A stretch of DNA of 46,706 nucleotides, filler included, from Pseudogymnoascus verrucosus (taxonomy: Eukaryota): NCBI GenBank assembly GCA_001662655.1. It is 25 parts of 25 records of this genome, joined end to end, with 100 filler letters (N's around TTAATTAATTAA, not from the genome) between each part and the next. Parts side by side here need not be neighbours in the genome. Positions count along the whole stretch, not along the records: positions 32,180 to 33,617 come from KV460343.1; positions 33,718 to 35,136 come from KV460344.1; positions 35,237 to 36,601 come from KV460345.1; positions 36,702 to 38,038 come from KV460346.1; positions 38,139 to 39,452 come from KV460347.1; positions 39,553 to 40,807 come from KV460348.1; positions 40,908 to 42,040 come from KV460349.1; positions 42,141 to 43,254 come from KV460350.1; 17 more parts are not named here. One strand, written 5' to 3'. The notes beneath the pieces were generated by a model. It was not told the DNA's origin, did not search any database, and worked only from the letters and a program-made list of their open reading frames with translations. Shown piece after piece: positions 2,924-46,706 of this stretch. How positions within the stretch are numbered: position 1 is the stretch's first letter; every line of letters starts with the position of its first letter. Position numbers and translations under genes: made by a program.

Positions 2924-3915
2924 CACAATCATCCATATCAACCTCGGTGCTAATCAACCCACCATCCTCAACCTCCCACAACGGCTCAACAAGAACAGTG
3001 CCGTTGGAATTAACAATGCAGGATCCGCCACGAGAGACGAAGTCGTCGCCCTTGGAGACGTCGCCCTTGACCCATGCGGGCAAATGGCTCTTTCGCTGGC
3101 ACTGGTTGGCTGAGACAACTACACACCTACCCTCGCAAGCAATCATGCGCATAGCGCTCAACCATGTGTCACGGGCATCGGCCGTTGGCGCCAAAAACAG
3201 ATTGACGTTCTGGTTGTACAGACTTTGTCTGAGGAGCGGCATGTAGTTCTCCCAGCAAATAGCAGCAGCCATGATAATCTTAGTACCGCGAATCTCCGTG
3301 GTAACAGCTCTCAGCGAGGAAGCCGCTCCCTGGCCCCAAACAAGTCTCTCGCTGCCCGTCTGTTCCCCACCTCCATCAGCTCTCGCTTGTCATGTGATAT
3401 TACCAAAAGAAAGAGTGGTGGCAACATCCAATACATACCGGCATCAACTTCCTCCTCTTCCCCAAAGCGCCATGCACAGGATCCACGTATATAGCACCAC
3501 AGTACAAGGTTCCCCCACACCTCTCAATTAGTCCCACAACGAGGAAAACGCCCGTCTGCTTCGAAATCCTCTCCAGCTCCTCTCTCGTCCCATCACCTCT
3601 CACGCCCCCATTCTTCGGCGCAGGCAAAGATTTCTCAACCCAAGCGTCGCCAGCTCCCTCAGGGGTATCCCCCAAATCAACCGCTGCGCGGAAGTACTGG
3701 AGGAACTGCTCACGGCCGGCGTCGGAACGTGAGCCGATCACGGCGCCGAAGTCACAGCCTCGCGGATAGCCGCCTAAGTAAGCTTCGGGGAAGAGCAGGA
3801 CATCGATGTTTTGCGCTGCTGCTTTCTTGGTGATTTCCTCGAGGTCGGTTAGAGTTTCGGTGAGGGTGTTTAGAGTGCGCGCTTGAGCGGCGCCGACTTT
3901 GATGACGGATGGCAT
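2924..3915 (-). CDS. Nitrilase, mirror copy, 3'-truncated
   Basis: Reverse complement of 4663-5654; intron 3360-3438. Confidence 0.75.
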
Positions 3916-4662
3916 TTTGAGGTTAAAGAGAGACCAGCGAATCAATATTATTAATTAGGACAGGCTTGAAAATGGTAGATTTGTGGTTTTTGACTTTTGC
4001 TACAAGAGGATATGGGAGCAGATGTCGTCTCTAAAAGAAGTCCCATTGGTATAAATTAGATGGCCATCGTAGGATTTGGGTTGACCTAATTAACGTTCAT
4101 GGTATGCAAGGTCCGAGCCTACCGAATAACGTAATACAAAAAATGTGAATCCACACCGGTGCGCGTATAGCAATTTATTTACTTGACATTAGGTTTAGTT
4201 TTAAGGGGTTTAAGGGAGTTAAGGGATTTAAGTTAACCTCTTTAATACAAGGCTTAGACCGGCACTTAGACACGGGAGAACATTTACTTAGTAAATGTTC
4301 TCCCGTGTCTAAGTGCCGGTCTAAGCCTTGTATTAAAGAGGTTAACTTAAATCCCTTAACTCCCTTAAACCCCTTAAAACTAAACCTAATGTCAAGTAAA
4401 TAAATTGCTATACGCGCACCGGTGTGGATTCACATTTTTTGTATTACGTTATTCGGTAGGCTCGGACCTTGCATACCATGAACGTTAATTAGGTCAACCC
4501 AAATCCTACGATGGCCATCTAATTTATACCAATGGGACTTCTTTTAGAGACGACATCTGCTCCCATATCCTCTTGTAGCAAAAGTCAAAAACCACAAATC
4601 TACCATTTTCAAGCCTGTCCTAATTAATAATATTGATTCGCTGGTCTCTCTTTAACCTCAAA

Positions 4663-5654
4663 ATGCCATCCGTCATCAAAGTCGGCGCCGCTCAAGCGCG
4701 CACTCTAAACACCCTCACCGAAACTCTAACCGACCTCGAGGAAATCACCAAGAAAGCAGCAGCGCAAAACATCGATGTCCTGCTCTTCCCCGAAGCTTAC
4801 TTAGGCGGCTATCCGCGAGGCTGTGACTTCGGCGCCGTGATCGGCTCACGTTCCGACGCCGGCCGTGAGCAGTTCCTCCAGTACTTCCGCGCAGCGGTTG
4901 ATTTGGGGGATACCCCTGAGGGAGCTGGCGACGCTTGGGTTGAGAAATCTTTGCCTGCGCCGAAGAATGGGGGCGTGAGAGGTGATGGGACGAGAGAGGA
5001 GCTGGAGAGGATTTCGAAGCAGACGGGCGTTTTCCTCGTTGTGGGACTAATTGAGAGGTGTGGGGGAACCTTGTACTGTGGTGCTATATACGTGGATCCT
5101 GTGCATGGCGCTTTGGGGAAGAGGAGGAAGTTGATGCCGGTATGTATTGGATGTTGCCACCACTCTTTCTTTTGGTAATATCACATGACAAGCGAGAGCT
5201 GATGGAGGTGGGGAACAGACGGGCAGCGAGAGACTTGTTTGGGGCCAGGGAGCGGCTTCCTCGCTGAGAGCTGTTACCACGGAGATTCGCGGTACTAAGA
5301 TTATCATGGCTGCTGCTATTTGCTGGGAGAACTACATGCCGCTCCTCAGACAAAGTCTGTACAACCAGAACGTCAATCTGTTTTTGGCGCCAACGGCCGA
5401 TGCCCGTGACACATGGTTGAGCGCTATGCGCATGATTGCTTGCGAGGGTAGGTGTGTAGTTGTCTCAGCCAACCAGTGCCAGCGAAAGAGCCATTTGCCC
5501 GCATGGGTCAAGGGCGACGTCTCCAAGGGCGACGACTTCGTCTCTCGTGGCGGATCCTGCATTGTTAATTCCAACGGCACTGTTCTTGTTGAGCCGTTGT
5601 GGGAGGTTGAGGATGGTGGGTTGATTAGCACCGAGGTTGATATGGATGATTGTG
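4663..5654 (+). CDS. Nitrilase (carbon-nitrogen hydrolase), 3'-truncated
   Basis: ATG 4663; exon 1 to 5139; intron GTATGT..AG 5140-5218; exon 2 [11 protein letters not shown]... The E-K-C triad is present ([20 protein letters not shown]). Confidence 0.9.
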
Positions 5655-9980: not shown

Positions 9981-10070
9981 ACATCTATATCTCTACGCCT
10001 ACGTCCTAGTTAGGGACTAGACTTAGGCTAGTTGCTTATCTTATATAGTTCTTATGATTCTTATGCGTTA

Positions 10071-10532
10071 ACTTAGGTCATGTCGTAAGCGCTGCCATGG
10101 CGTAAGCGACAATTTCAGCAACCACACCAAAATCCACGTCATGTGACTAAAATTAAAACCTTAATAACTTCTGTAATAATGGTTATAAATCTTAATGCTC
10201 TTAGACTATTACTCTTTATATAATCATCTAATATATGTAAAAACGCTAGTAGCGCTAGTCTTATTTTACAATAAATATTAAGGCTTTAACTTTTACTATA
10301 TAAAATATTTATATAGTAAAACTTAAACTATAAATAACTCTTTAATAAGACTAGCTTACATTATTACAAATTAAGCCCTAATGTATGCATATATAAAGAG
10401 TAATAATATAAGAGGATTAAGCTTTATAACAGTTAATTAAAAAGTTATTAAGGTTTTCACATGACGTGGATTTTGGTGTGGTTTCTAGAATAGCCCTTTA
10501 GGCCATGTAGCCCTTTAGGCCATGACCTACGT
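10071..10532. mobile_element. pogo-type MITE with non-matching ends (left degenerate GCGTAAGCG type, right CCTAAAGGG type)
   Basis: TA-flanked; the interior is the reverse complement of the 11863-12333 MITE interior. Confidence 0.75.
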
Positions 10533-10534
10533 TA

Positions 10535-10661
10535 TGATTTTTATTAGCAGAGATATTTAGATTTTTAGTTTTATAAACATAAGTACCTTTACATACAAAT
10601 TTGGCTGTAAAGGTACATTAGGCCCATTACGCCATTAGACCCATTACGCCATGACTTACGT
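10535..10661. mobile_element. MITE end, TIR core TGGCGTAATGGG(T/C)CTAA
   Basis: ..cccattacgccattagacccattacgccatgacttacgt|ta. Confidence 0.7.
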
Positions 10662-10779
10662 TATATAATATGTGTTTAAGGTTATTATAGGTTGCTATAA
10701 TATTATATGCTAACTAACAAGTGTTTTAGGTTATTAGGTTATTATATGTTTATTTGTGTTGGCTTTTGTAGTGACTTAA

Positions 10780-10936
10780 GTCTTTAAGGAAAAAACTTAT
10801 CTATTTCTAAAGGTTAATTCCATGTTTGTATAAATGGTTTTCCTTCTATATAAACCTACTAGCATACTATTCTACATATGTTCTAAGTTATCACATAAGT
10901 TATACCTTCTATACCTATGTTCTAGATTATTATGTA
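10780..10936 (-). repeat. Fragment of the LTR-like ATAAC(T/C)TAGAACA repeat family
   Basis: Reverse complement resembles 35590-35740; also similar to 35446-35527. Confidence 0.45.
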
Positions 10937-11220
10937 ACGTAAGTCGTGGCCATACCGGCTACATGGCCATACCGGCTAACGTAGGTCATGGCCATACCGG
11001 GACTAACGTAGGTCATGGCCTAAAGGGCTACATGGCCTAAAGGGCTATTCTAGAAACCACACCAAAATCCACGTCATGTGAAAACCTTAATAACTTTTTA
11101 ATTAACTGTTATAAAGCTTAATCCTCTTATATTATTACTCTTTATATATGCATACATTAGGGTTTAATTTGTAATAATGTAAGCTAGTCTTATTAAAGAG
11201 TTATTTATAGTTTAAGTTTT
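10937..11220. mobile_element. Three stacked TIR left ends (10937, 10979, 11006); the last continues as a CCTAAAGGG-type MITE
   Basis: ta|acgtaagtcgtggccataccggc..ta|acgtaggtcatggccataccgggacta|acgtaggtcatggcctaaaggg. Confidence 0.85.
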
Positions 11221-11332
11221 AGATCGGAAGAGNNNNNNNNNNNNNNNNNNNNNNNNNNNNNNNNNNNNNNNNNNNNTTAATTAATTAANNNNNNNNNNNN
11301 NNNNNNNNNNNNNNNNNNNNNNNNNNNNNNNN

Positions 11333-11571
11333 TTCTCTGTACCCTTATTCTATACTCTACGCTTCTAGATAATTAAGCGTAAGTTATCACACTCTCTTTT
11401 TTAAAGGGTGTTGCGTGTATTAAGGCGTTCTGTCTCGTCTGTTAACTTATTAATATATCGCTTTATAGGAGTATTAAGAGTAGTACTCTAACTTATTATA
11501 GTAGAGAGTACTATATTTACTGTTATAAATAAGGAGCCTTTGTTATAGTTTTCCATTTTGTATTACTTTTA
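11333..11571 (-). pseudogene. RIP-mutated, internally deleted pogo transposase fragment
   Basis: Matches 46390-46530 and 41810-41860 with many C>T/G>A changes. Confidence 0.75.
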
Positions 11572-32179: not shown

Positions 32180-32980
32180 CATTCAACAGCAGACACCCAT
32201 TCCTGTCGGCTAGGATGAGCTTGAAATCGCGTACGGAGCGTAGAGTCGACTATAATTCGTGTAGATTGCATAGTTCCAATCGAAAATCCAGTTTCATCCA
32301 TATTGTAGGTGTTGTAGTTTTCGATTTTTAGCTCTGTTATAAGGCTTTTATACGCGTCAAACCACCCCTTCAACACCTGCTTTGTTACCCCATTCATCCT
32401 TTGTGCCTCAACTCTACGTCCTAACTTAACACGTAAGTTAGGATGCCTTTGAATGAATCGTGGCACCCACTCTTGCCCAAGAGGTAACTTAGGTATTTGA
32501 GGTTGTTGAGTTTGAGGTTGTTGAGTTTGAGGTTGTTGTTGTTGTTGTTGTTGTTGAGGCTGAAAAACGCGACACTTATTTGACCGGACTTCATCTGCAA
32601 CCTCCTGTAATATCCGATGGCTAGGAGCGTAGCCGCTTGCAGTAAGCTCTTTAATCCACTTTAGAAGTGTTTGCTCTTGATTTTTTGTAAGGAGTTGCTG
32701 TTGTTGTCGCGCTTCCTTACACGTCTGCCCTCCATTTAAGCGTGTCTGTACTGTATATGTCCGAAGCCCTAAAGCCTTTGCAGCAGCATAGGAAGATTTA
32801 TATAATCCGGATTTTATTCCAATGACTGCCTCAGCTAATAGATTATTGCGTTCTTGAGCCTTTAAACTGCTCTTGCGTACCATATTTATAATATAATTAA
32901 TGGGTTGGTGAGTTTAATGGGGTAGTTCCAACCCCACTATGCCGGTTACGCCATTGTGCCGGTTACGCCATGACTTACGT
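32180..32980 (-). mobile_element. Left part of a pogo transposon (TIR TGGCGTAACCGGC) with an uninterrupted transposase ORF from 32883
   Basis: psq HTH + CENP-B HTH + YNMDETGF, no stops in about 234 codons; TIR ends at 32980|TA. Confidence 0.92.
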
Positions 32981-33194
32981 TACTTAACGAAAATAGCATA
33001 CACTCTAGCAAATTTAGCTATAATAAATAGGGATATAAAGAGTAATAGTCTAAGAGGATTAAGCGTTATAAGCATTATTACAAAAGTTATTAACGTTTTA
33101 ATTTTGATCGTGTGACCTTGGTTTTGGTGGGGTGCGGGTGGCTCTAACAAAGCGTCCCGTTACGCCATCCGTCCCGTTACGCCACGACTTACGT
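32981..33194. mobile_element. MITE half, TIR core TGGCGTAACGGGACG
   Basis: ..cgtcccgttacgccatccgtcccgttacgccacgacttacgt; interior related to the 11863 MITE. Confidence 0.75.
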
Positions 33195-33390
33195 TGGGGT
33201 CCGCTAGGCTATTCTTCTTGAAATTAATAGTCATGAAGGTGACTGCTTTGCACTATTTCCGGAATATATACAGAGAATGAAGACCTCTAATCCAAATAAT
33301 TAAGTCCTACTCCAAATAGTAGATGAAGAAGATAACAATAACAACATACGTAATAACTTAAGACGATTTAAGGCAATTGCTTTTGCACTA

Positions 33391-33617
33391 ACGTAAGTCG
33401 TGGCCTAATGGCACCAATGGCCTACTGGCACTAGTGGGGTTAGGCCGACCCCATCAAAGCTTCAAAAAATTGCAATAATTCAATTACTACCACCCTAATT
33501 CATCTATATCATCATCAGAAGGCTCTTCTTCGCTCTCTTCATCCATTTCCTCAATTATAGCTTCGTTTATAGGTCGTAGCGTTGTTCTAGGCCTCTGTGA
33601 AGCTATGGCTGTTGCTG
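33391..33617 (-). mobile_element. Right end of a pogo transposon, TIR core TGGCCTA(A/C)TGGCAC
   Basis: ..DDIDELGW* then the TIR; TA flank. Confidence 0.88.
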
Positions 33618-33717
33618 NNNNNNNNNNNNNNNNNNNNNNNNNNNNNNNNNNNNNNNNNNNNTTAATTAATTAANNNNNNNNNNNNNNNNNNNNNNNNNNN
33701 NNNNNNNNNNNNNNNNN

Positions 33718-35136
33718 TACCTAACCAGCTATTGTCAAAAAATCAGGAAATTGTCCTCTTAAAGTGGATTAAGGAGCTTACTGCAAGTGGCTACGCTCCT
33801 AGCCATCGGATATTACGTGAGGTTGCAGACGAAGTTCAGTCAAATAAGTGTCGCGTTTTTCAGCCTCAACACCTACAACTACAACAACAACCTCAAACTC
33901 AACAACCTCAAATACCTAACTTACCTCTTAGGCAAGAGTGGGTGCCACGATTCATTCAAAGGCATCCTAACTTACGTGTTAAGTTAGGACGTAGAGTTGA
34001 GGCACAAAGGATGAATAGGGTTACAAAGCAGGTGTTAAAGGGGTGGTTTAACGCGTATAAGAGCCTTACAATAGAGCTAAAAATCGAAAACTACAACACC
34101 TATAATATGGATGAAACTAGATTTTCAATTGGAACTATGCAATCTACACGAATTATAGTTGACTCTACGCTCTGTACGCGATTTCAAGCTCATCCTAGCC
34201 GACAGGAATGGGTGTCTGCTGTTGAATGCATTTGCATGGATGGAACAGCTATTGAGCCCCTTATTATATTTAAGGGCCAGAACATCCTACAAAGCTAGAT
34301 TCCAAAGGAGGTTATACAAAAATGGCACTTCTCTGCAAATACAAAAGGATAGACAAGCAATCTTCATGGATTAGAGTAGCTAAAACGCGTTTTTAAGCCC
34401 TCTACAAGAGCAAAAGCAACACAAAATGGAAAACTACAACAACGGCTCCTTATTTGCAATGGTCATGATAGCCATATAAGTGGAAGCTTTATATCACACT
34501 ATATTCAAAATCGAATATCGCTCCTTATAATACCTCCTCATACATCTTATGTTCTACAGCCACTTGATGTTGCGATTTTTGGACCTTTAAAGAAACACCT
34601 TACAACAGCCCTCTCACACCTAAATGAAGCACAACTACTACGTATATAGAAGTCGGAATGGATAGAGGCATACATTACTACAAGAGCAGCTGCTTTTTCA
34701 AATGTAAATATCACTTCTGCTTAGAGAGGGAGTGGGCTACAGCCATTTCAACCACAAACAGTCATTCGGGCAGCTACGCTTCCTACAACAGACGTTATAT
34801 TAGAACGGCCACATACTCCTATAGAGCATGATATTTTTAAGAAGGTATTCTTAAACAGTAGTCCACCTGATTTTAATACTCTTCAAAAAGCGAACTCTAT
34901 GCTCTCTTCTACAATAAGTCAGAGTGTTTTGAATACTCCTACAAAGCAATATATCAATAAGTTAGCAGATGAGTTAGAACGCCTTAATACACGCAACACC
35001 CTTTAGAAAAGAGAGTGTAATAACTTACGTTCAATTATCCAGAAGCGAAGAACATAGAATAAGGGTAAAAGAGCAGTTTTAAAGGGTCAATTCCACATCT
35101 CAACAGAGGAGTTACAGTCGCAAGTTATAGAAGCAG
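33718..35136 (+). pseudogene. pogo transposase body (CENP-B HTH + DDE), RIP-inactivated
   Basis: NMDETRF, LLICNGHDSH, HTSYVLQPLDVAIFGPLK; TGG>TAG and CAG>TAG stops. Confidence 0.92.
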
Positions 35137-35236
35137 NNNNNNNNNNNNNNNNNNNNNNNNNNNNNNNNNNNNNNNNNNNNTTAATTAATTAANNNNNNNN
35201 NNNNNNNNNNNNNNNNNNNNNNNNNNNNNNNNNNNN

Positions 35237-35443
35237 ATTATTACAAATTAAACCCTAATGTATGCATATATAAAGAGTAATAATATAAGAGGATTAAGCT
35301 TTATAACAGTTAATTAAAAAGTTATTAAGGTTTTAATTTTAGTCACATGACGTGGATTTTGGTGTGGTTTCTAGAATAGCCCTTTAGGCCATGTAGCCCT
35401 TTAGGCCATGACCTACGTTAGCCGGTTACACCACGACCTACGT
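35237..35443. mobile_element. CCTAAAGGG-type MITE end (to 35418) inserted in the TIR of another element (remnant to 35443)
   Basis: ..catgacctacgt|ta gccggttacaccacgacctacgt|ta. Confidence 0.85.
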
Positions 35444-35527
35444 TAAGTCTTAGAAGGAAAAAACTTGTCTATTTCTAAAGGTCTAATTCTATGTTCGTAT
35501 AAAGGGAAAACCCTTTGTATAAATATA

Positions 35528-35740
35528 TGTTAGAGTGGCAACGCACATAACAACAGTATTACGTGTAAACAAACGAACAACAACTTATGTGATAACTTAG
35601 AACATAGGTGTAGAAGGTACAGCTCATGTAATAACTTAGAACACATGTAGAATAGTACGCTACTAGGTTTATACGAAAGGAAAACCCTTTGTATGAACAT
35701 ATGAACATAGAATTAGACCATTAGAAATAGACAAGTTTTT
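35528..35740 (+). repeat. LTR-like repeat starting TGTTAGAGTGGCAACGCAC
   Basis: Shared with 16048 and 38617-38747; a TG start is typical of LTRs, but no CA end or internal domain is seen. Confidence 0.5.
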
Positions 35741-35873
35741 TGTTAGAGTTTATAAACCAACCTAAGACTACTACAAGTATAGGCGTTCTACCTTTGCATA
35801 ATTTAATGGTTTTGACAGTTATGAGCCTAGAATATAGCATTACATAACATGTAGGCTGCTTTTGTCATAAACT

Positions 35874-35933
35874 TCACACTTTGTACAAACGAGCGACACT
35901 TCGTATAAACGAGCAATACTTTGTATAAACGAG
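35874..35933. mobile_element. Probable end of a different TA-targeting element: three 20-bp units ACTT(T/C)GTA(C/T)AAACGAG
   Basis: The array stops at a TA inside pogo transposase sequence (..gag|TAtttttgaatagcag). Confidence 0.55.
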
Positions 35934-36338
35934 TATTTTTGAATAGCAGTCCACCTGATTTTCAAACACTTTATAAAGCAAATACAGTGCTCTTAACAGC
36001 CTTAAATCAAGGTGTTTTAAATACTCCTACAAAGCAATATATCAATAAGTTAGCAGATAAGTCAAAACGCCTTAATACACGCAACACCCTTTAGAAAAGA
36101 GAGTATGATAACTTACGCTCAATTATTTAGAAGCGTAGAGTATAGAATAAGGGTAAACGAGCAGTTTTAAAGGGTCAATTCCACATCTCAACAGAAGAAC
36201 TCTAGTCGCAAGTTATAGAAGTAGAAGCAGTAACAGCTATAGCTTCACAGAGGCCTAGAACAACGCCACGACCTATAAACGAGGCTATAATTAAGGAAAT
36301 AGATGAAGAGAGCGAAGAAGAGCCTTCTAATAATGATA
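35934..36338 (+). pseudogene. pogo transposase 3' fragment, RIP-mutated
   Basis: Matches the reverse complement of about 46205-46618. Confidence 0.85.
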
Positions 36339-36601
36339 ACGTAAGTCGTGGCGTAACCGGCACAATGGCGTAACCGGCATAATGTCACTTTACACTGAAC
36401 TTTGTATAGAAAGGTACTTACTTCTAATGATTTTTGAAATGATCATAACTTTTGCACTTTTGACTGTACAACTTAGCTCTTTTGTATGGTAATAGTACAC
36501 ATATTGTCCTATTATGTATAGAAGCTATAAAATATTCACGACGTTATTAAAAAAAGTTGATTTTTTTTGGTGAGGGAACAACACATGATTATGCCGGTTA
36601 C
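36339..36601. mobile_element. TGGCGTAACCGGC-type short MITE, cut by the contig end
   Basis: Inverted homolog of 12491-12768. Confidence 0.85.
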
Positions 36602-36704
36602 NNNNNNNNNNNNNNNNNNNNNNNNNNNNNNNNNNNNNNNNNNNNTTAATTAATTAANNNNNNNNNNNNNNNNNNNNNNNNNNNNNNNNNNNNNNNNNNN
36701 NGGG

Positions 36705-36743
<39 letters not shown>

Positions 36744-37013
36744 CGGTTGGGGGGGTGGTTTGTGGGGGGGGATGTGGGGTGGGGGGGGGGTTGGGGGGGG
36801 GGGGGGGGAGGGGGGGGTGGGGGGAGGGGGAGGGGGGGGAGGATGGTGCCTGATGGCGCCAGTGGGAGGGTGTGAGGGCGGGGAATCAGACTGGTCTGAG
36901 ATGTGTGGAAGAGGGATTGGGGGTGTTTGAGATGGTAGATGCTGGGTAATAATTCGGGATTGGAATCGGGGATAGGCAAGGACGAATAGGAGGGAGATGG
37001 GGTGAAAACACAC

Positions 37014-38038
37014 CTTATCTTTCTTACACCCGAACCCCTCAAGATAGCACCACCCAACCTCATTCATCGCGTCTAGAATCCCTTCCGTTAGCCGGCTGTG
37101 CATACGTGTGGGGGTGGGCCAAGAGAATGCGAGGGTCGTACCTGTGTCCCCTAGATTCGCGGCGGTTTCGTAATACTGCGTTTCGTCAGCTCCTTGTGCT
37201 ACCGATTGACTTTCCCCTCACTATCGCCATATACCACCGACGATCACGAGGCGCACGCCACACCACTTACTTGCTTAGCAGCCACGGGGTCCTTCTTGAC
37301 CCCCCAACCTTGCCTGAAGGAATTCGCGAGCTCGAAAATCGCGAGGACTAGCTCGCCCTTTGCGGCGCCTCCTTTTGCGGAGCCGGCGCGCAGAGCGGCT
37401 TCTTCGATGGAGGCGGCGTTTGAAGCGGCATAGGTGAGATATTGCATTGCCTGCGCTGGATCCGCTGTGCAGCCCCATCCGTGTCTATTCAATTGTGTCA
37501 GTAAAATGTTGCGAAAAAGAACCATGTAGCTGATGACCCAAGGACCAGCAAGGAGGTGAGTGAGGATAAAATCCCATACCTTAGAGCAAGCCCATAAAGC
37601 ACCTGACTCAACGCATTATTATCCCCCCCCGGATCCGCCAACCGGCCAAACATCCGCGTCGCCTCCTCCAAGCTCCCCTCCTCATGAAGCCGGATAGCCT
37701 CCTGTATATTATCATCCGCCTTCTTATCCCCCACCACGCCCACGTTCTCTCTCCTCAGCTCCTGCCCCAGCGTCTGTCCCATCCCCACCCCCGCGGTCGC
37801 TAGCAGGCTTCCAACGCCCCTCTCAGGACTCCCGCTCGCGCTGCGAATGATAGCGCCGTTGCTCCTCGCAAGCAGCGTGGCGCGCTTCTCCCACTGGCGC
37901 TCGCGCTCTGTTTGGTCGCCCCCCCCTTCGGCATCGGGGGCTACGTCTATCGCGGGGAGGTCGGTGGGGATGTTTGAGCTGCTGACTTCGCGGCGGAGGT
38001 GGAGGCGGGCGGAGAGGCGGCGGCGGGTGCGGTTTTCG
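37014..38038 (-). CDS. Sel1-repeat protein (Dsf2/Nif1-like), internal exons only
   Basis: IQEAIRLHE..SQVLYGLALR | HGWGC..LAIFELANSFRQGWGVKKDP | YYETAANLGD | AMNEVGWCYLEGFGCKKDK, joined by GT..AG introns. Confidence 0.85.
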
Positions 38039-38138
38039 NNNNNNNNNNNNNNNNNNNNNNNNNNNNNNNNNNNNNNNNNNNNTTAATTAATTAANNNNNN
38101 NNNNNNNNNNNNNNNNNNNNNNNNNNNNNNNNNNNNNN

Positions 38139-38228
38139 TAGAAGGGTAAGTATCTTTGCATACAAATTTATATGTAAGGGTACTTATCGCCGCTTACGCC
38201 ATATCGCCGCTTACACCATGACTTACGT
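38139..38228. mobile_element. MITE end, TIR core TGG(T/C)GTAAGCGGCGATA
   Basis: tatcgccgcttacgccatatcgccgcttacaccatgacttacgt|ta. Confidence 0.75.
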
Positions 38229-38747
38229 TAGTTGTTATGCATAGTTCCTCATTTGACTTTCAGGCGGCACGAGTATGAGTGCAGGCAGGGTGTGGGATAT
38301 TTCTGAATCTCTGCAAAAACGTCAGAACTCTTTAGTGAATGTAATGTATTTTTGTAGCTTATGGAGCCTTTAGCCAATATTTAGGTTCAAATAAAGAGTG
38401 TTATTACCATTGTCATATTTTGTTCCATTCGGACTAACTTATCTATCTACATTGCTAAGATGTTAGTAATATATCTGTAAAAAAGATCTAGCATTTTCTA
38501 GACTTGTTAACGCTAGAGCTACTACCTAAAATAATAAAAAATATCAAAACTACCACCCTATCTATAATTAGTAGATATACTATAATTACCGATATAGACG
38601 TAATGAAGGATTAAACGGTTAGAGTGGCAATGTGCGCGACAACAATGTCATGTGTAAACAAACAAACAAACACTCATGTGATAACCTAGAACATGTGTAG
38701 GAACTATAACACTACATAATAACCTAGAACACAGGGTGTAGAAGGTA

Positions 38748-38914
38748 ACGTAAGTCGTGGTCAGACCGGCTACATGGCCAGACCGGCTACCCCACTAAAA
38801 TCTAGGACTAAACCACCAAACCTTACCACCACCACTAATACTACAATGGTAAAGCGTAGGAGTATAAAGGCTCAAGAGCGTGATTTTCGACTTTCTGAAG
38901 CTATTTTAGGAATA
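38748..38914 (+). mobile_element. Left end of a pogo transposon, TIR core TGG(T/C)CAGACCGGCTA (ATG 38846), interrupted
   Basis: Same start as 42934; inserted in the LTR-like repeat at 38617-38747. Confidence 0.85.
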
Positions 38915-39400
38915 ACGTAGGTCGTGGGGATACCGGCTCAATGGGGATACCGGCTCAATCACCAACCCCACCAAAATCTAGAGTAAGAACACTAACCCAC
39001 CACAACTACAGAATGGTACAACGCAGGAGTATTAAGGCTCAGGAGCGCAATATACAGCTTTCTGAAGCTGTTTTAGGAGTACAAACTAGAAAATTCAAAT
39101 CAGCATATACTGCAGCTAAGGCCTTAGGACTTAGGCCAGATACAGTGCGTAGGCGCATAAGCAGTGTACAGAAGACACATACTGATTCCCATTAGAAACA
39201 GCAACTCCTATCCAAAAACTAAGAGAAGACCTCTTAAAGTGGATTAAAGAGCTTACTGTAAGCGGCTACGCTCCTACCCATTGGATATTACAGGAGGTTG
39301 CAGATGAAGTCCAGTCAAATAAGTGTCGCGTTTTTCAGCCTTAACAACAACACTTACAACAACTACAACTACAACCTCAAATTCCTAACTTACCTCTTAG
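38915..39400 (+). mobile_element. Left part of a pogo transposon, TIR core TGGGGATACCGGCTCAA (ATG 39013), with stops and a frameshift
   Basis: MVQRRSIKAQ..LGLRPDTVRRR..KWIKELT; another TIR starts at 39435. Confidence 0.85.
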
Positions 39401-39946
39401 TTAACAGTTCTAATATTTTAAAACAGTTAATGTAACGTAGGTCGTGGCGTAANNNNNNNNNNNNNNNNNNNNNNNNNNNNNNNNNNNNNNNNNNNNTTAA
39501 TTAATTAANNNNNNNNNNNNNNNNNNNNNNNNNNNNNNNNNNNNNNNNNNNNTCCCCAATCCTGCGTTGCGTCACCGATCAACAGGGGGCATATGTACTC
39601 GAGTACGTATGTTGCAGCACGCAAATCCACCTTTGGACCCAATATAACTAACTCCCTTATCGCGCCCGTTCAAATCTCAAAAGCTCCCCTTCTACCCCCA
39701 AACACACATCCTTCTCATTCTCCTACACTCCTTATCTCCTTTAAAACCATCGACGACTCCAACCGGCCATCTCGCCAGAGAGTCACCTACCCTACAGACT
39801 ACACTCCTCTCTCTCCTAGAGTTTCAACAACTTTTCCGTCGCCCATCCGAGTCGCCCGGCGTGAAACGTCAGCCCTAAATAACAAGGGAAAAATCCATCT
39901 CCTTCTCCTGAACAACCTCGAATCCCCCTCAACCACCAACAGCAAA

Positions 39947-40709
39947 ATGTCCAGCAACAAAGCATCCCGCAAGAAGTCGCCCACGCGAAAGGGCTCCTCG
40001 CGCTCACCCGCTCCCAAGGACAAGGTGAGCGCCGAGCAGCCTCTCCTGAATGGCACGGGCGCCGCCGCCGCAGGCAGCAAGGAGGAGCACCCTTACGAGA
40101 ACATTTTTCTCTTCTGGCCGAATATCATCGGTAAGTCTTCCACTTATCCCATCCTCTATCGATATCCTACCGCGCAGAACCTAACAACAATCCCCAGGCT
40201 ACGTGCGCATCGTCCTCGCCCTCGGCTCGCTCTACTACATGCCTCTCCACCCCCGAACCTGCACAATCCTCTACAGCGTGTCGTGTCTCCTCGACGCCCT
40301 CGACGGCTACGCCGCGCGCTACTTCAGCCAGTCCACCCGCTTCGGCGCTGTTCTGGATATGGTGACTGATCGCTGCACGACGGCGTGTCTGCTTGTTTTC
40401 CTCGCCTCCGCGTTCCCGCGCTGGTCGATCGTGTTTCAGGGTCTTATCTCTTTGGATCTCGCGAGCCATTACATGCATATGTACGCTACGCTCGTGATGG
40501 GTGGATCGGGAGAGAGTCACAAGAAGGTCGATCGTAGCCGTAGCTACATCCTGAACCTTTACTACACGAACAAGGTACTTCCCCCATTCTCCCCCAAAAC
40601 CACCACATCATGAACTCCCCGCTAACCCCACCCCCCCTTCCAGACGGTCCTCTTCCTCTTCTGCGCCCTCAACGAAATCTTCTTCATAGCCCTCTACCTC
40701 CTCTCCTTC
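39947..40709 (+). CDS. PIS1: Phosphatidylinositol synthase, 3'-truncated
   Basis: ENIFLFWPNIIG|YVR; introns 40131-40197 and 40575-40643; CDP-alcohol phosphotransferase motif LDALDGYAAR..FGAVLDMVTDR; DLASHYMHMY. Confidence 0.95.
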
Positions 40710-40907
40710 CCCCCTCCCCCCCCCCCCCCCCCCCCCCCCCCAGCCCCCCCCCCCCCCTCCCCCCCCCCCCCCCCCCCCCCCGCCCCCCCCCCCCCCCCCT
40801 CCCCCCCNNNNNNNNNNNNNNNNNNNNNNNNNNNNNNNNNNNNNNNNNNNNTTAATTAATTAANNNNNNNNNNNNNNNNNNNNNNNNNNNNNNNNNNNNN
40901 NNNNNNN

Positions 40908-42040
40908 GGGCTATTTTACCGACCCCACCAAAATCTAGGACTAAACCACTGAACTACCACCTTTAAAAATCGCAAATAATTCAATTACTACCACCCTAAT
41001 TCATCTATATCATCCTCTGAAGGCTCTTCTTCACTCTCTTCATCTATTTCCTCAATTGTAGCTTCGTTTATAGGTTGTGGCGTTGTTCTAGGCCTCTGTG
41101 AAGCTGTTGCTGTTGCTGCTTCTGCTTCTACAACTTGCAACCGGAGTTCTTCTGTAGAAATGTGGAATTGACCCTTCAAAACTGCTCTTTTACCCTTATT
41201 CTGTATTCTTCGCTTTTGGATAATTGAGCGTAAGTTATCNNNNNNNNNNNNNNNNNNNNNNNNNNNNNNNNNNNNNNNNNNNNNNNNNNNNNNNNNNNNN
41301 NNNNNNNNNNNNNNATATATCGCTTTGTAGGAGTATTCAAAACACCTTGATTTAAGGCTGTAGAGAGCACAGTATTCGCTTTTTGAAGGGTATTAAAATC
41401 AGGTGGACTGCTGTTTAGAAATACCTTCTCAAAAATATCATGCTCTGTAGGAGTATGTGGTCGTTCTACTATAACGTCTATAGTAGGAAGTGTAGCTGCT
41501 CGAATGACCGTTTGTGGTTGAAATGGCTGTAGACCACTCCCTCTCTAAGCAGAATTGATATTTGAAGTCGAAAAAGCAGCTGCTCTTGCAGTAATATATG
41601 CATCCATCCATTCTAACTTATGTATTCGTAGGAGTTGTGCCTCATTAAGGTGCGAGAGAGCTGTTGTAAGGTGTTGCTTTAAGGGCCCAAAAATCGAAAT
41701 ATCAAGTGGCTGTAGAACATGAGATGTATGAGGAGGTATTATAAGGAGCGATATTCGATTTTAAATGCAGTGTGATATAAAGCTTCCGCTTATATGGCTA
41801 TCATGGCCATCGCAAATTAGGAGCTATTGCTGTAGTCGTCCATTTTGTGTTGCTTTTGCTCTTGTAGAGGGCTCAAAAACACGTTTTAGCCACTCTAATC
41901 CATGAAGATTGCTTGTCCATCCCTTTGTATTTGCAGAGAAGTGCCATTTTTGTATAACCTCCTTCGGAATCCAGCTTTGTAGTATATTCTGTCCTTTGAA
42001 GATAATAAGGGGTTCAATAGCTGTTCCATCCATACAGATG
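40908..42040 (-). mobile_element. 3' half of a pogo transposon (AAAGGGCTA-type end), lightly mutated
   Basis: MDGTAIEPLIIFKG..KGWTS..LLICDGHDSH..LQPLDISIFGPLK..DELGW*; few stops. Confidence 0.9.
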
Positions 42041-42140
42041 NNNNNNNNNNNNNNNNNNNNNNNNNNNNNNNNNNNNNNNNNNNNTTAATTAATTAANNNN
42101 NNNNNNNNNNNNNNNNNNNNNNNNNNNNNNNNNNNNNNNN

Positions 42141-42668
42141 ACCCAATCCTGCCCAAGAGGTAAGTTAGGAATTTGAGATTGTAGTTGTTGAGTTTGTGGT
42201 TGTTGAGTTTGTAGTTGTTGTAGCTGTTGTTGAGGCTGAAAAACGCGACACTTATTTAACCGGACTTCATCTGCAACCTCCCGTAATATCCGATGGCTAG
42301 GAGCGTAGCCACTTGTAGTAAGCTCCTTAATCCACTTTAATAGGGTCTGCTCTTGGTTTTTAGATAGGAGTTGCTGTTGCTGTCGCGCTTCTGTCCGTGT
42401 AAGGCTACTACCTTTAACGCGTCGTTGTATAGTCCTCTCACAGACCCCTAACACCTTTGCAGCCTCATATAATGACTTATATTTTTTGTTTCAGACTCCT
42501 AGGACTGCTTCAGCTATTTTATTATTGTGTTCTTAAGCATTCTGGCTCTTCTGTCGTACCATAACTTAATAAAAGTTATATAGTAGTAGTAATTAAGGCT
42601 GTTAATAGGGTGGTCCTAACCCCACTACCGACATTACGCCATTACCGACATTACGCCACGACCTACGT
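42141..42668 (-). mobile_element. Left part of a pogo transposon, TIR core TGGCGTAATGTCGGTA (ATG 42562, early stops)
   Basis: MVRQKSQNA*..LGVCERTIQRRV..LLKWIKELT; TIR ends at 42668|TA. Confidence 0.88.
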
Positions 42669-42933
42669 TACAACCTAAGTTACCTCTTAGGCAAGATTGG
42701 GTTCTACAATTCATTTAAAGGCATCCTAACTTACGTGTTAAGTTAGGACGTAGAGTTGAGGCACAGAGGATGAATGGGGTAACAAAAGAGGTGTTAAAGG
42801 GGTGGTTTGACGCGTATAAAAGCCTTACAACAGAGCTAAAAATCGAAACATATAATATCTATAACATAGACAAGACTAGATTTTCAATTAGAACTATGTA
42901 ATCTATACGAATTATAGTTGATTCTACGCTCTA
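42669..42933 (+). pseudogene. Internal pogo transposase fragment lying between two outward insertions
   Basis: Matches about 33915-34173. Confidence 0.8.
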
Positions 42934-43254
42934 ACGTAAGTCGTGGTCAGACCGGCTACATGGCCGGACCGGCTACCCCACCAAAATCCAGAATAGAACC
43001 ACCAAACCCAACCACCACCACTAATACTACAATGGTGAAGCGTAGGAGTATAAAGGCTCAAGAGCGTGATTTTCGACTTTCTGAAGCTATTTTAGGAATA
43101 CAGACTGGAAAATACAAATCTGCAAATGCTGCAGCTATAGCCTTAGGGCTAAGGCCAGACACTATACGGAGACGCGTTAGTGGTATACACTGTACACAAG
43201 CAGAAGCGCAACTACATAATCAGCTACTATCAAAAAATCAAGAACAGATACTCT
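42934..43254 (+). mobile_element. Left end of a pogo transposon, TIR core TGG(T/C)C(A/G)GACCGGCTA, ORF from 43032
   Basis: MVKRRSIKAQ..LGLRPDTIRRRV..QLLSKNQEQIL is open to the contig end. Confidence 0.88.
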
Positions 43255-43354
43255 NNNNNNNNNNNNNNNNNNNNNNNNNNNNNNNNNNNNNNNNNNNNTT
43301 AATTAATTAANNNNNNNNNNNNNNNNNNNNNNNNNNNNNNNNNNNNNNNNNNNN

Positions 43355-44092
43355 AAGAACATGACGAGCGTTATGATGGATGTGTAGAGAACAACGACGA
43401 CGATACTGAACCAGGCGGCGATGCGAAACCATGTCTGCGGCGACAATCGGAGGTAGACCGTGAGCAGCGAGAGTTTCGTGAAGCCATTGCACAGCTGGTA
43501 AACAGGAGCTGCAATGTATATGTCCTTTGGAAAGTCATCAGTCCAACCCGTGTAATTTGCGGGGCAGTAGGGTATCGCAAAAACTTACGACCGAGTACTT
43601 CTCGAATCTTGTGAGTGGCATTTCCCACACATGGACACACAGGCCGCCCCCAGCAATTGATCCTGCGAGGTTATCGTCAGCAATGCCACTTTGACAGAAT
43701 GAAATCAAGTATCCTTACGGACAAGTATTGCCTGTGTTGCTATTGAGAAGCCCTATAGATGGCTGTTAGTCGTCTATGCCATAGAGGGATTCCCTGTATC
43801 GCCATATCATACCCATCCAATGAGCATCAAATCTGTTGGTGTCAGTAACGAGTTATTGCGGTTTCCTTGAATACTAACAGTCATCTATCTGCAAAGACCT
43901 GTGTTTGGTCAAGAATAGCTTCGTGTAGAGCCGCTGGCATATAGCAAGAAAGGCCAAAGTTCCTCCTATGGCGAACACTAAGTAGTGTGCCAACCATAAA
44001 TGGTGCCGGGGCGGATTGTTGAAATCTGGGATAATGCCTGGTGGCGGCAGCTCGAAGACGGTGACACCGTTGACGACTGGAAATCCCGACAT
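43355..44092 (-). CDS. PTH11-like (rhodopsin-domain) integral membrane protein without CFEM, multi-exon, 3'-truncated
   Basis: LPPPG..PDF.NP, QRLYTK..LQIDD, CVHVWEMP, FTKLSLLTVYLRL across short GT..AG introns. Confidence 0.85.
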
Positions 44093-44545
44093 CTCATCAG
44101 CGGGGCCGGCTACACAGTGCTTCGCGTCACCGGAAGAAAAGCTAGAGGTGTAAGCAAGTTGGAGATCGTGTGGAGAGCGCCGCGAATCAGATTATATATG
44201 GTACATACATACCTAGGTTGCTCCTCCCTCTAGAATAGATTACTGCGCATGTTAAAATTTGTCTCAGCCCTCTTGTTTTAAGCCATGTGATGTTGTAACT
44301 CCGCGGCCTGCCATTGTCTCATTGATATGACGTATTTCCCCGGTGTTGAAGGTTAGATCCCGTTGATGTTAGTCTGAGGTGCCTTAGGCTGAAAGCTGCC
44401 GACGGGTGAGAAAATCGGTTGTAGATTGGTAGTCAGGTCGTAGTCNNNNNNNNNNNNNNNNNNNNNNNNNNNNNNNNNNNNNNNNNNNNTTAATTAATTA
44501 ANNNNNNNNNNNNNNNNNNNNNNNNNNNNNNNNNNNNNNNNNNNN

Positions 44546-45597
44546 AACAGCTAAGGCTGCTATTATCTCGTCTATAGCTTAGATCTGTGTTTTCGTTAGC
44601 TAGATAACATCCCTTAGCAGCACTTAGTCTAGCTTAGCCTATGTGAAATGGCCGCCCTCGTAATGCACTACATAGTAGTAGTACACTAAGAGCTGCTTTA
44701 TGGTAGTAAAGTACGTAACTAGGGTTAACAGGTTCTTAAAATGCTAGAACCCGTCTGCTTTTCCTAACGCCCTAGCATAGAATTCGTTTAGAATATTAGC
44801 CTACTACTACGTCATTTTCCGCTCTAGCAAAGTGTTACTATATAGCTTGTAGGCATCTCTTAACATAGCCTTAGCAGCACCTAGGATGTAGACTAGGTTA
44901 AGATCTATAGCACCCTTAGCACTAGCATCAACCTCTCTCTTTAGTAGTAGCTTATATAAGTACTAGATCTCTTCCTCCTTTAGCTTAGCCGTGTGCGATN
45001 NNNNNNNNNNNNNNNNNNNNNNNNNNNNNAGACAATGCTAGCTTGCTCTTTAATATCTCCCTTAACGTCTTAGTAGTCCTCCTCTAGCTTTATAAAAAGC
45101 GCCTTCTCCTCTTCTTTTAATAGTGTTGATAATTCTAATATATTTAGTTTTTCCTCATTTTTGTTTTTATCAACTACAATAAAATAATCAATTCGGCCCT
45201 TCCCTACAAAATATGTCTATAGCGTACACTCTTTCTATAATTGCCTTGTCTTATGCTCTACTGCCTTAATTTTATAAGAACAACTTACGTGCTCTTTCAT
45301 CTTAGGCAAATGCTACGTATAGTAGCTGCATTGCGTATAGAGACAGTAGAAGCCATCGTACGTAGCTAGGCCCTTAATTAGTGCACACCTAGCCCTTAGC
45401 TTACACGCCTCGTTTTTAAGCTCCTCAATCGTCTTAAGCTTGTAATTGCTTAATAGTTGGACCTATGTCTTAAGTACATTGCCTAAAAGCTAGTGTAGAT
45501 CCGCTTAAAGGTGCTGCTCTTACCTAGACCAACCTAGGACGACGTAAGACCTATACATACAACATACTACTATACTGTTACAGCTGAAACATGCAAC
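44546..45597 (-). pseudogene. Second, diverged RIP-mutated DUF3505-domain gene
   Basis: Minus strand reads YDGFYCLYTQCSYYT*HLPKMKEHV..L*KECTL*TYFVGKGRIDYFIVV; many TAG/TAA. Confidence 0.65.
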
Positions 45598-45697
45598 NNN
45601 NNNNNNNNNNNNNNNNNNNNNNNNNNNNNNNNNNNNNNNNNTTAATTAATTAANNNNNNNNNNNNNNNNNNNNNNNNNNNNNNNNNNNNNNNNNNNN

Positions 45698-45887
45698 AAG
45701 CAGACTTAAATTGATTTGATCGGACAGCTAATACTGCCTTCTCTATTTCAATATTATGCTCTTGGGCCTTAATACTCCTACGCTTAACCATTTGATGTAG
45801 TAGTGGTGATAGTCGAGTGGTTGATAGGGTGGGCCCAACCCCACTAGTGCCAGTAGGCCATTGGTGCCATTAGGCCACGACTTACGT
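45698..45887 (-). mobile_element. Left end of a pogo transposon, TIR core TGGCCTA(A/C)TGGCAC (ATG 45791)
   Basis: MVKRRSIKAQEHNIEIEKAVLAVRSNQFKSA; TIR matches that at 33391. Confidence 0.85.
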
Positions 45888-46077
45888 TAGCTTACATTAT
45901 TACAAATTAAACCCTAATGTATGCATATATAAAGAGTAATAATATAAGAGGATTAAGCTTTATAACAATTAATTAAAAAGTTATTAAGGTTTTAATTTTA
46001 GTCACGTGACGTGGATTTTGGTGTGGTTTCTAGAATAGCCCTTTAGGCCATGTAGCCCTTTAGGCCATGACCTACGT
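45888..46077. mobile_element. CCTAAAGGG-type MITE half
   Basis: Near-identical to 35237-35418 and 10352-10532. Confidence 0.85.
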
Positions 46078-46079
46078 TA

Positions 46080-46706
46080 ACGTAAGTCGTGGTCAGACCG
46101 GCTACATGGCCGGACCGGCTACCCCACCAAAATCCAGAATAGAACCACCAAACCACCAACTTAGAAAATCGCAAATAATTCAATTACTACCACCCTAATT
46201 CATCTATATCATCCTCTGAAGGCTCTTCTTCGCTCTCTTCATCTATTTCCTCAATTATAGCTTCGTTTATAGGCCGTGGCGTTGTTCTAGGCCTCTGTGA
46301 AGCTGTTGCTGTTGCTGTTGCTGCTTCTGCTTCTATAACTTGCGACTGGAGTTCTTCTGTAGAAATGTGGAATTGACCCTTTAAAACTGCTCTCTTACCC
46401 TTATTCTGTGCCCTACGCTTCTGGATAATTGAGCGTAAGTTATCACACTCTCTTTTCTGAAGGGTGTTGCGTGTATTAAGGCGTTCTGACTCATCTGCTA
46501 ACTTATTGATATATCGCTTTGTAGGAGTATTTAAAACACCTTGATTTAAGGCTGTTGAGAGCACTGTATTTGCTTTGTGAAGTGTTTGAAAATCAGGTGG
46601 ACTGCTATTCAAAAATACCTTCTCAAAAATATCATGCTCTGTAGGAGTATGTGGGCGTTCTACTATAACGTCTGTAGTAGGAAGCGTAGCTGCTCGAATG
46701 ATTGTT
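46080..46706 (-). mobile_element. Right part of a pogo transposon (CAGACCGGC-type TIR); transposase C-terminus open to the stop at 46187
   Basis: ..NSSPPDFQ..KGQFHIST..DDIDELGW*; shares one TA with the MITE ending at 46077. Confidence 0.9.

Follow-up and report, generated by a model that had tools for sequence, protein, structure and literature searches.

Divergent end-and-HTH cassettes around a near-uniform interior in a Fot-type pogo transposon family of Pseudogymnoascus verrucosus

How can copies of one transposase family start with clearly different N termini, between clearly different terminal inverted repeats (TIRs), and still be nearly alike further in? The question is raised by a window of 46,706 nucleotides from Pseudogymnoascus verrucosus (GCA_001662655.1), which consists of unplaced small contigs strung together with N/TTAATTAATTAA spacers between them, so that neighbourhood across a spacer is meaningless. 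Because these are leftover contigs, the analysis was widened to the whole genome (G000). The initial annotation had described five left ends with different TIR cores and N termini, and these hold, TIR cores and helix sequences included: type AACCGGCA at 32180..32980 on the minus strand (TIR 32980-32937, ATG 32883, reading frame truncated at the contig end; G000:C138), type GATACCGG at 38915..39434 on the plus strand (TIR 38915-38958, ATG 39013, with stops, a frameshift and a nested TIR at 39435 that ends the piece), type AATGTCGG at 42141..42668 on the minus strand (TIR 42668-42625, ATG 42562, two stops in the head), type AGACCGGC at 42934..43254 on the plus strand (TIR 42934-42977, ATG 43032), and type AATGGCAC at 45698..45887 on the minus strand (TIR 45844-45887). 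The last, whose start at 45791 is indeed cut before the helix, at codon 31, is of the same type as an intact 580-residue copy elsewhere in the genome (G000:C116:2270-4208, L034). A sixth left end, again of the AGACCGGC type seen at 43032, lies at 38748..38912 (plus) and is interrupted after codon ~22 by the 39013 element.

Around these left ends the window holds further pieces of the same family. Right ends with transposase tails are found on the minus strand at 33391..33617 (type AATGGCAC, TIR 33391-33434) and 46080..46706 (type AGACCGGC). A transposase body with RIP-type stops at 33718..35136 (plus) begins with a remnant of the AGACCTGC (C89a) head type, a tail fragment at 35933..36601 (plus) carries a short AACCGGCA-type MITE inserted at 36339, a core and tail fragment lies at 40908..42040 (minus; right TIR cut), and a body fragment at 42671..42931 (plus) separates two left ends. 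Unstranded MITE pieces comprise a fragment at 32982..33194 with a AACGGGAC-type TIR at 33194 and two AAAGGGCT-type ends, one at 35237..35443 nested in a second TIR end, the other at 45888..46077 adjoining the next TIR at a common TA. A second cluster, apart from the main region, spans 10069..16268 (unstranded) with MITEs at 11863-12333, 12769-13252 and 13394-13876, a TIR-bounded piece at 14722-15229, and body and tail fragments.

Across the whole genome this family, here family A, is a Fot-type pogo family with a DD35D triad (D193, D309 and D345, 35 residues separating the last two), TA flanks, and TIRs that start with ACGT and contain two 17-bp repeats each. TA directly precedes 250 of 253 ends, counted at occupied sites only; the TIR core is 44 bp in all types and the TIRs reach ~50-75 bp in five matched elements. 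A DDE_1 domain (PF03184, E=5e-28) covers residues 224-397, and its fold matches Mos1 and Metnase. DD35D is a Fot criterion in the accessible part of PMC7386202, by which HTH_Tnp_Tc5 or HTH_psq, one motif being enough, also marks membership; the former scores above its cut-off in the intact copy and, at E<=1, appears in 26 of 27 heads, the latter is found in only 12 of the 27 and is absent from the reference. A sequence search of solved structures gave no useful match for the transposase, fold searches with the heads gave only weak HTH matches, and the full-length structure model is poor over the second HTH. For residues 6-105 the best near-full-length fold matches are the CENP-B(1-129)-DNA complex (1hlv) and the Tc3 bipartite domain (1u78), at a Foldseek probability of 0.47 and Z 4.5; these are weak, not above unrelated HTH rows, and such folds do not fix the base contacts.

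What sets the copies apart is concentrated in the head. The 42 left ends of the genome carry 22 labels, which amount to ~20 real types of TIR, 5'UTR and first HTH. In the codon alignment, from which all head divergence figures are taken, 18 types differ by transversions at 1162 of 3035 fourfold-site comparisons (0.38) over codons 1-72 and at 132 of 1901 (0.07) over codons 73-106, with none in 421 within types; silent transversions in the core come to 889 of 16153 (~0.055). The drop is sharp, at codon ~72, with non-homologous flanks masked in the sliding-window analysis. Divergence along the gene is thus very uneven even at silent sites, the reverse of the even divergence that had been named as grounds for abandoning the modular reading, and neither RIP nor protein constraint explains the contrast. 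Over codons 1-36, transversions between the four window heads long enough to include the helix number 8-24 per 108 nt. The earlier statement that copies past the head differ mostly by transitions holds for codons 73-108 (1-2 transversions vs 5-8 transitions per 108 nt, n=4 copies), but the body does carry transversions, in a shared pool of transversion polymorphisms. At the protein level cores are 92-96% identical and heads 51% on average, with variable residues clustered at helix positions 41-43, 46-47 and 50 and at linker positions 52-56.

Such clustering in helix and linker would also fit clonal subfamilies in which heads and TIRs evolve fast, through diversifying selection or locally raised mutation, over a core under purifying selection. 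Two recombination results leave room for this: the test on the whole family A body is not significant (p=0.69), and clonal evolution simulated under fitted rate variation reproduces the raw site incompatibility (0.40+/-0.06 vs 0.44 observed) and so does not discriminate. We nevertheless regard clonal subfamilies as distinctly improbable, as the head/core contrast sits at silent sites and comparison with other samples contradicts them. Heads were found on four foreign elements, three of them from one metagenome. Three metagenome elements have heads of G000 types on cores outside all G000 cores: in the head tree L092, L091 and L097 group with G000 heads (100/100, 100/98 and 97/77), whereas the 23 G000 cores all fall into a single group (93/88), also when coded as purines and pyrimidines (SH-aLRT 95.9, bootstrap 95). 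In the GTR trees RIP draws heavily mutated copies together. With groups picked after viewing the data, AU tests reject a single clade of G000 heads (p=8e-37) and, for the core tree, each of the three pairings across samples (p=4e-56, 1e-5 and 0.006); C117b and C120 as a core clade are not rejected (p=0.20). Head and core trees are therefore incongruent, where congruence would have counted against the modular reading, and the heads predate the host split while the cores have been homogenised within the host. Between samples, heads of one type differ at 1-2 of 26-33 silent sites and the cores that go with them at 7-9 of 53-81; heads are thus not faster-mutating; among same-type copies, too, heads are more uniform than cores (0.002 vs 0.02).

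Signs of an exchange of the interior also come from within the genome. One tail adjoins many right TIRs, one TIR type adjoins three tails, and the recombination test is significant for the family A core (p=0.011). C117b and C120, which have a common head, show no transversions over nt 217-680 and then 16 over 681-1161. The C117b element has mismatched ends in the assembly, and since family A copies form nested clusters on short contigs or at contig ends, single mosaics such as this one may be assembly joins. Could collapsed repeats attached to various heads, or repeated use of a single consensus body, account for the whole pattern? The window is made of leftover contigs with gaps, and in four public runs no contig spans an element, C117b included. 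But shuffling cannot leave the body pool less diverse than the head pool, the bodies carry private RIP changes, the same heads sit on related bodies in independent metagenome contigs, a second family (below) is dispersed with matched ends, and run contigs join a body to other heads in three runs, with a head-type loose end in the fourth; an artefact on this scale is highly improbable. In each of the four runs, one of which (X1) may come from the source sample, read depth drops ~20-40-fold across the head, which is only a hint, as depth is not copy number. No RNA data set was listed as containing the family, a result that carries no information about expression. The earlier proposal of a TIR and first-HTH module swapped onto a homogenised core is thus supported by the incongruent trees, the uneven silent divergence and the run-contig joints. 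As the module takes in the matching right TIR too, the picture becomes one of fixed ends and an exchangeable interior.

The left end matches the right one in 5 of 6 full elements and in 51 of 56 MITEs, where random pairing would give 5%. Over 19 types, partial Mantel tests tie the helix to TIR bases 9-15 (r=0.41, p=1e-4) and the linker to bases 4-8 (r=0.61, p=2e-4), with crossed pairs near zero, although positions were picked with the data in view and the types are related to one another. Matched ends and covariation suggest, indirectly, that head types may differ in binding specificity. All heads might instead bind all TIRs, with ends matched by intramolecular TIR-to-TIR conversion and heads hitch-hiking beside the TIR; residues 1-37 correlate with TIR bases as well (partial r=0.24), and the helix test in the second family is not significant. 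We think this unlikely, given the lack of crossed signal and the pair C35a/C36, which keeps a common helix (1/24 transversions) and TIR core while codons 1-37 differ (25/111). The 56 MITEs (278-516 bp, TIR-bounded, inner GC 0.24-0.28 in six checked) have no match to the transposase interior, and some whose interiors are 90-95% identical have different TIR pairs at both ends, which likewise speaks against heads without specificity. Most head types have their own cognate MITE, and the common TIR types suggest that the cognate transposase may move these in trans. As to the possible escape from MITEs that the initial annotation raised, types AATGGCAC, AATGTCGG and AGACCTGC have no MITE ends matching their own (0/4, 0/5 and 0/3) and include well-preserved copies, but such copies also occur in MITE-rich types.

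The head/core pattern is repeated in family B, a second, distant family in the same genome, whose copies are dispersed, with matched ends in 16 of 16 elements and a significant recombination test (p=0.001). Here residues 1-37 correlate with the TIR (r=0.48) and the helix-TIR Mantel test does not reach significance (r=0.18, p=0.11), but R, D or N at residue 47 pairs by eye with TIR base G, C or T, as specificity would have it. Close types are separated by point changes, such as PFESLRTR/PFESLRAR, which clonal descent would also produce. In a metagenomic sister clade the pattern is echoed at the protein level; DNA of five loci from five metagenomes gave no head/core silent contrast.

Taken together, family A is probably a cut-and-paste family of the Fot type in which a specificity cassette is kept apart from an exchangeable catalytic interior. 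The cassette comprises the left TIR, 5'UTR, HTH1 and linker (codons 1-72) and the matching right TIR. Within the 17-bp repeat, helix 3 (residues 41-47) would read bases 9-15 and the linker bases 4-8, and the second HTH, common to all, would read the constant part. Interiors could be exchanged through ectopic gene conversion, or when the repair of an excision gap switches template; a single crossover would leave mismatched, immobile ends, so that only interior swaps persist. New cassettes may arise by point changes in helix and TIR, and by exchange within the head. More speculatively, and somewhat less likely than otherwise, old cassettes may persist because rare specificities escape titration by MITEs and dead copies. 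With similar reserve, we suggest that Fot-type pogo elements in general could be multi-allelic specificity systems, with old TIR/HTH1 cassettes kept across hosts by frequency-dependent selection against MITE load, interiors concerted per host, MITEs following by two-TIR swaps, and a readable code of orthogonal transposase/end pairs.

Finally, we would like to place family A among known systems. In mariner and in rice Osmar/Stowaway elements, TIR and transposase co-diverge, lost cross-recognition creates subfamilies, and MITEs match the TIRs of their partners; Tc1 copies exchange sequence during repair. Unlike in family A, however, the whole transposase diverges in these cases, or exchange occurs among copies with one TIR type, and we know of no precedent for its combination of features. 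In the literature covered, with most subscription journals, Repbase, Dfam and supplements outside its scope, we found no description of such a cassette/interior family. The Fot family of pogo (PMC7386202) and Trem, Aft1 and Tan1 (PMC2836289) resemble family A in DD35D, 40-60-bp TIRs and two 17-bp repeats, proposed to bind the HTH and CENP-B domains, and FotC/FotD in the TA flanks; in the accessible parts of both papers they are described as separate families, with no common interior under many cassettes. DAHLIAE1 a-e of Verticillium dahliae have overall identities of 73-74% at the DNA level and 67-72% at the protein level, with no head/core split, mosaicism or code reported in the available text (PMC3441728), as opposed to the 92-96% cores and 51% heads of family A. 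The hobo_AC hAT elements of Anolis, as far as the excerpted account goes (PMC3014272), similarly combine termini of one group with the centre of another through interelement recombination, but are mostly non-autonomous, and neither a tie to DNA-binding specificity nor old cassettes common to several hosts are described for them.

The idea that loss of cross-recognition splits DNA transposons into subfamilies, which thereby shed parasites and self-inhibition, has long been discussed. Some 20 TIR/HTH pairings on one enzyme suggest a route to lineage splitting with continued trade of working parts, and family A makes the idea testable, with ~20 heads by 20 ends, a near-constant enzyme and cognate MITEs. 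Core-based trees and identity-threshold families would merge functionally distinct lineages and mis-date them. Family B and the sister-clade protein echo suggest that the pattern is not a one-off, and if the specificity is true, the set would offer orthogonal transposon tools of natural origin and rules for HTH-DNA recognition.

The window consists of unplaced small contigs whose joints are N runs and one TTAATTAATTAA spacer, and all five left ends that the initial annotation had described as different TIR and helix modules on one transposase body were found in it, with their TIR cores and helices. Since the window copies are fragments, we fetched this family (family A) from the whole assembly (151 contigs, 30.2 Mb), in which the TIR start has 262 exact matches; a slightly looser TIR pattern gave 256 unique ends among the fetched loci. 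One intact copy, on contig C116, encodes 580 aa and has matched TIRs. Copies of family A and MITEs are heavily nested, at the ends of contigs and on small ones (C19, C23, C25, C29, C32, C35, C55, C65, C72, C105-C121); 13 of the 253 ends sit immediately next to another end, the two having one TA in common. The transposase contains DDE_1 and HTH_Tnp_Tc5 domains, a DD35D catalytic triad and a core fold resembling Mos1; its nearest named database relatives are from Pseudogymnoascus (92%), with Sclerotinia and Lipomyces farther away. TA precedes 250/253 ends, and the TIRs start with ACGT and contain two 17-bp repeats. These features agree with the definition that the accessible part of PMC7386202 gives for the Fot family of pogo. 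Separately, window 19305-19955 holds a piece of a different, more distant pogo-like transposase, and a third-family pogo transposase on contig C67 (L050:2561-4282) is intact (573 aa, matched TIRs) and 37-43% identical to family A. The contig at window 2924-5654 is a perfect inverted duplication, probably a fold-back artefact, of a gene that we take from its translation to be nitrilase-like.

In the core, 463 of 786 C-to-T mismatches against the column majority fall at CpA, as expected for RIP. RIP makes no transversions, and because the copies bear its marks, divergence was judged on transversions; a poly-Q/QP tract in the second HTH region (codons 109-130; window 32500-32560 and 33860-33910), whose length differs in every copy, was masked throughout. 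Of 43 left ends collected, 42 could be labelled as 22 types (one stayed unlabelled), two of which are near-duplicates, leaving about 20 real types. Each type is a head, comprising the left TIR, 5'UTR, first HTH and linker (codons 1-72), on a shared body. Along the gene, transversion divergence falls from 0.19-0.28 in codons 1-60 to values of mostly 0.00-0.03 for the body, with local rises at codons 361-400 and in the tail. The core also has, at codons ~345-400, a strongly divergent haplotype block that is re-assorted across head types. At fourfold sites, transversions between 18 type representatives drop from 0.38 in codons 1-72 to 0.07 in codons 73-106, with 0.055 for the core and 0/421 within types. 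Heads average 51% amino-acid identity among types, not far from the 46% against a metagenomic sister clade, whose proteins are overall only 56-61% identical. As the contrast between head and core lies at silent sites, protein constraint does not explain it.

Within the genome, the same-type copies C32/C23 and C89a/C45 are clonal along their full length, whereas C117b/C120 and C106c/C25a switch haplotype part-way; one tail sequence is found beside many right TIRs, and three tails beside a single right-TIR type. With a PHI-like test, p was 0.011 for the core, 0.002 within heads and 0.69 for the whole body, and by raw site incompatibility a clonal simulation was indistinguishable from the data. 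The strongest evidence is therefore the incongruence across samples. Three metagenomic elements (L091, L092, L097) carry heads of types present in P. verrucosus, and L092 is also nearly identical in TIR and UTR. In the head tree, which includes four foreign heads, three of them from one metagenome, each of the three pairs with its matching type, while in the core tree all 23 P. verrucosus rows (of 45 labelled; those omitted were too short or frameshifted) form one group with four foreign rows outside. GTR trees are distorted by RIP; purine/pyrimidine-coded trees gave the same head pairing and core grouping. AU tests, on groups named once the head tree had been inspected, rejected the P. verrucosus heads as a single clade and every cross-sample pair in the core; one same-head trio was also rejected, but the pair C117b and C120 was not. 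Set against 7-9 per 53-81 silent sites in the matching cores, the 1-2 per 26-33 by which same-type heads differ across samples mean that the heads are not hypermutable. The contrast recurs among foreign elements (heads 34/119, cores 30/444). Judged from these sequences, the heads predate the cores.

We compared contigs from four public runs of four studies, of which X1 may be the source sample, with the element C117b. One X1 contig bridges its boundary between head and body by more than 31 letters on either side, and three further contigs do so by fewer letters; no contig in the four runs covers the whole element. Runs X1, X2 and X8 contain joints whose sequence follows the body, diverges from it near codon 65-72 (in one case deeper in the body) and returns to it at the conserved second helix; X2 and X4 have loose ends that run on into other heads. 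An independent metagenome protein (P0001) joins a P. verrucosus head type to the common body.

In a structure predicted for residues 1-107, with a mean pLDDT of 83, helices span 7-24, 31-38, 42-49, 55-62, 67-82 and 89-100. Head residues 41-43, 46-47, 50 and 52-56 are variable and 38, 40, 44, 48 and 51 conserved, a pattern typical of HTH recognition helices. Across 19 types, helix residues covary with repeat bases 9-15 and the linker with bases 4-8, with no crossed signal; the p-values are optimistic because positions were picked on inspection and the types are related. Copies C35a and C36 have the helix and the TIR core in common yet differ over codons 1-37. Ends match in 5/6 traceable full elements and 51/56 short elements, against 5% of random pairs. 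One full-length element (L040:852-2842, contig C117) has left and right TIRs of different types, and arose either by a single crossover or as a join made in assembly.

A second Fot-type family (family B; L063, L064, L067, L069, L171-L200), ~35% identical to family A and dispersed in the genome, unlike the nested family A, also combines a shared core with many TIR and helix types; it accounts for 28 of 44 loci examined, the remainder being other families, short or without match. Its ends match in 16/16 cases, silent divergence is 0.21-0.23 in codons 16-45 and 0.02-0.08 past codon 60, and a recombination test gave p=0.001. Residue 47 (R/D/N) pairs, as judged by eye, with G/C/T in the 17-bp repeat, but for the helix a Mantel test gave no significant correlation (p=0.11). 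In the metagenomic sister clade, cores are up to 94% identical and heads near 50-60%, but five DNA loci from five metagenomes gave no silent contrast between head and core.

The cassette structure and its boundary, the cross-sample incongruence, the matched ends and the cognate MITEs are direct observations. Exchange would likely proceed by template switching in gap repair, a process known for Tc1. In Tc1/mariner elements, two transposases bind the TIRs via HTH motifs (accessible part of PMC2874221); by analogy, both ends would have to fit the head, so that interior exchanges would survive and single crossovers would not. The closest published descriptions, as far as the accessible text of each goes, include DAHLIAE1 a-e of Verticillium dahliae (PMC3441728), Trem/Aft1/Tan1 for TIR anatomy (PMC2836289) and the Anolis hAT elements for swaps of terminus and centre (PMC3014272); the accessible parts of PMC7325037 and PMC5751038 report nothing like the head/core pattern described here. 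In the literature covered, with most subscription journals and Repbase/Dfam lying outside it, we met no description of a concertedly evolving pogo core that carries many old specificity cassettes. The component parts are already known; their combination and scale appear undescribed.

What, then, of the non-autonomous copies, from which the initial annotation had suggested that such swaps might offer escape? We found 56 TIR-bounded elements of 278-516 bp without transposase sequence, and MITE ends outnumber autonomous ones (159 vs 73; 24 unclassified). The MITE interiors (e.g. L031:5618-6100) are very AT-rich imperfect palindromes, with 59-75% identity to their own reverse complement in six checked. 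MITEs 90-95% identical internally bear different TIR pairs, so MITEs, too, change address. Two MITE types have TIRs whose exact or near matches occurred otherwise only in foreign elements, L080 (contig C7) matching the metagenome element L096 exactly and L051 (contig C29) nearly matching the sister-clade L094; no fitting heads were found among the fetched P. verrucosus loci. The accessible part of PMC3072357 discusses how autonomous and non-autonomous copies compete, and any bearing on the persistence of old cassettes is speculative. Most head types possess a cognate MITE, and together the MITE data are evidence that MITEs track the head types, not that heads escape them.
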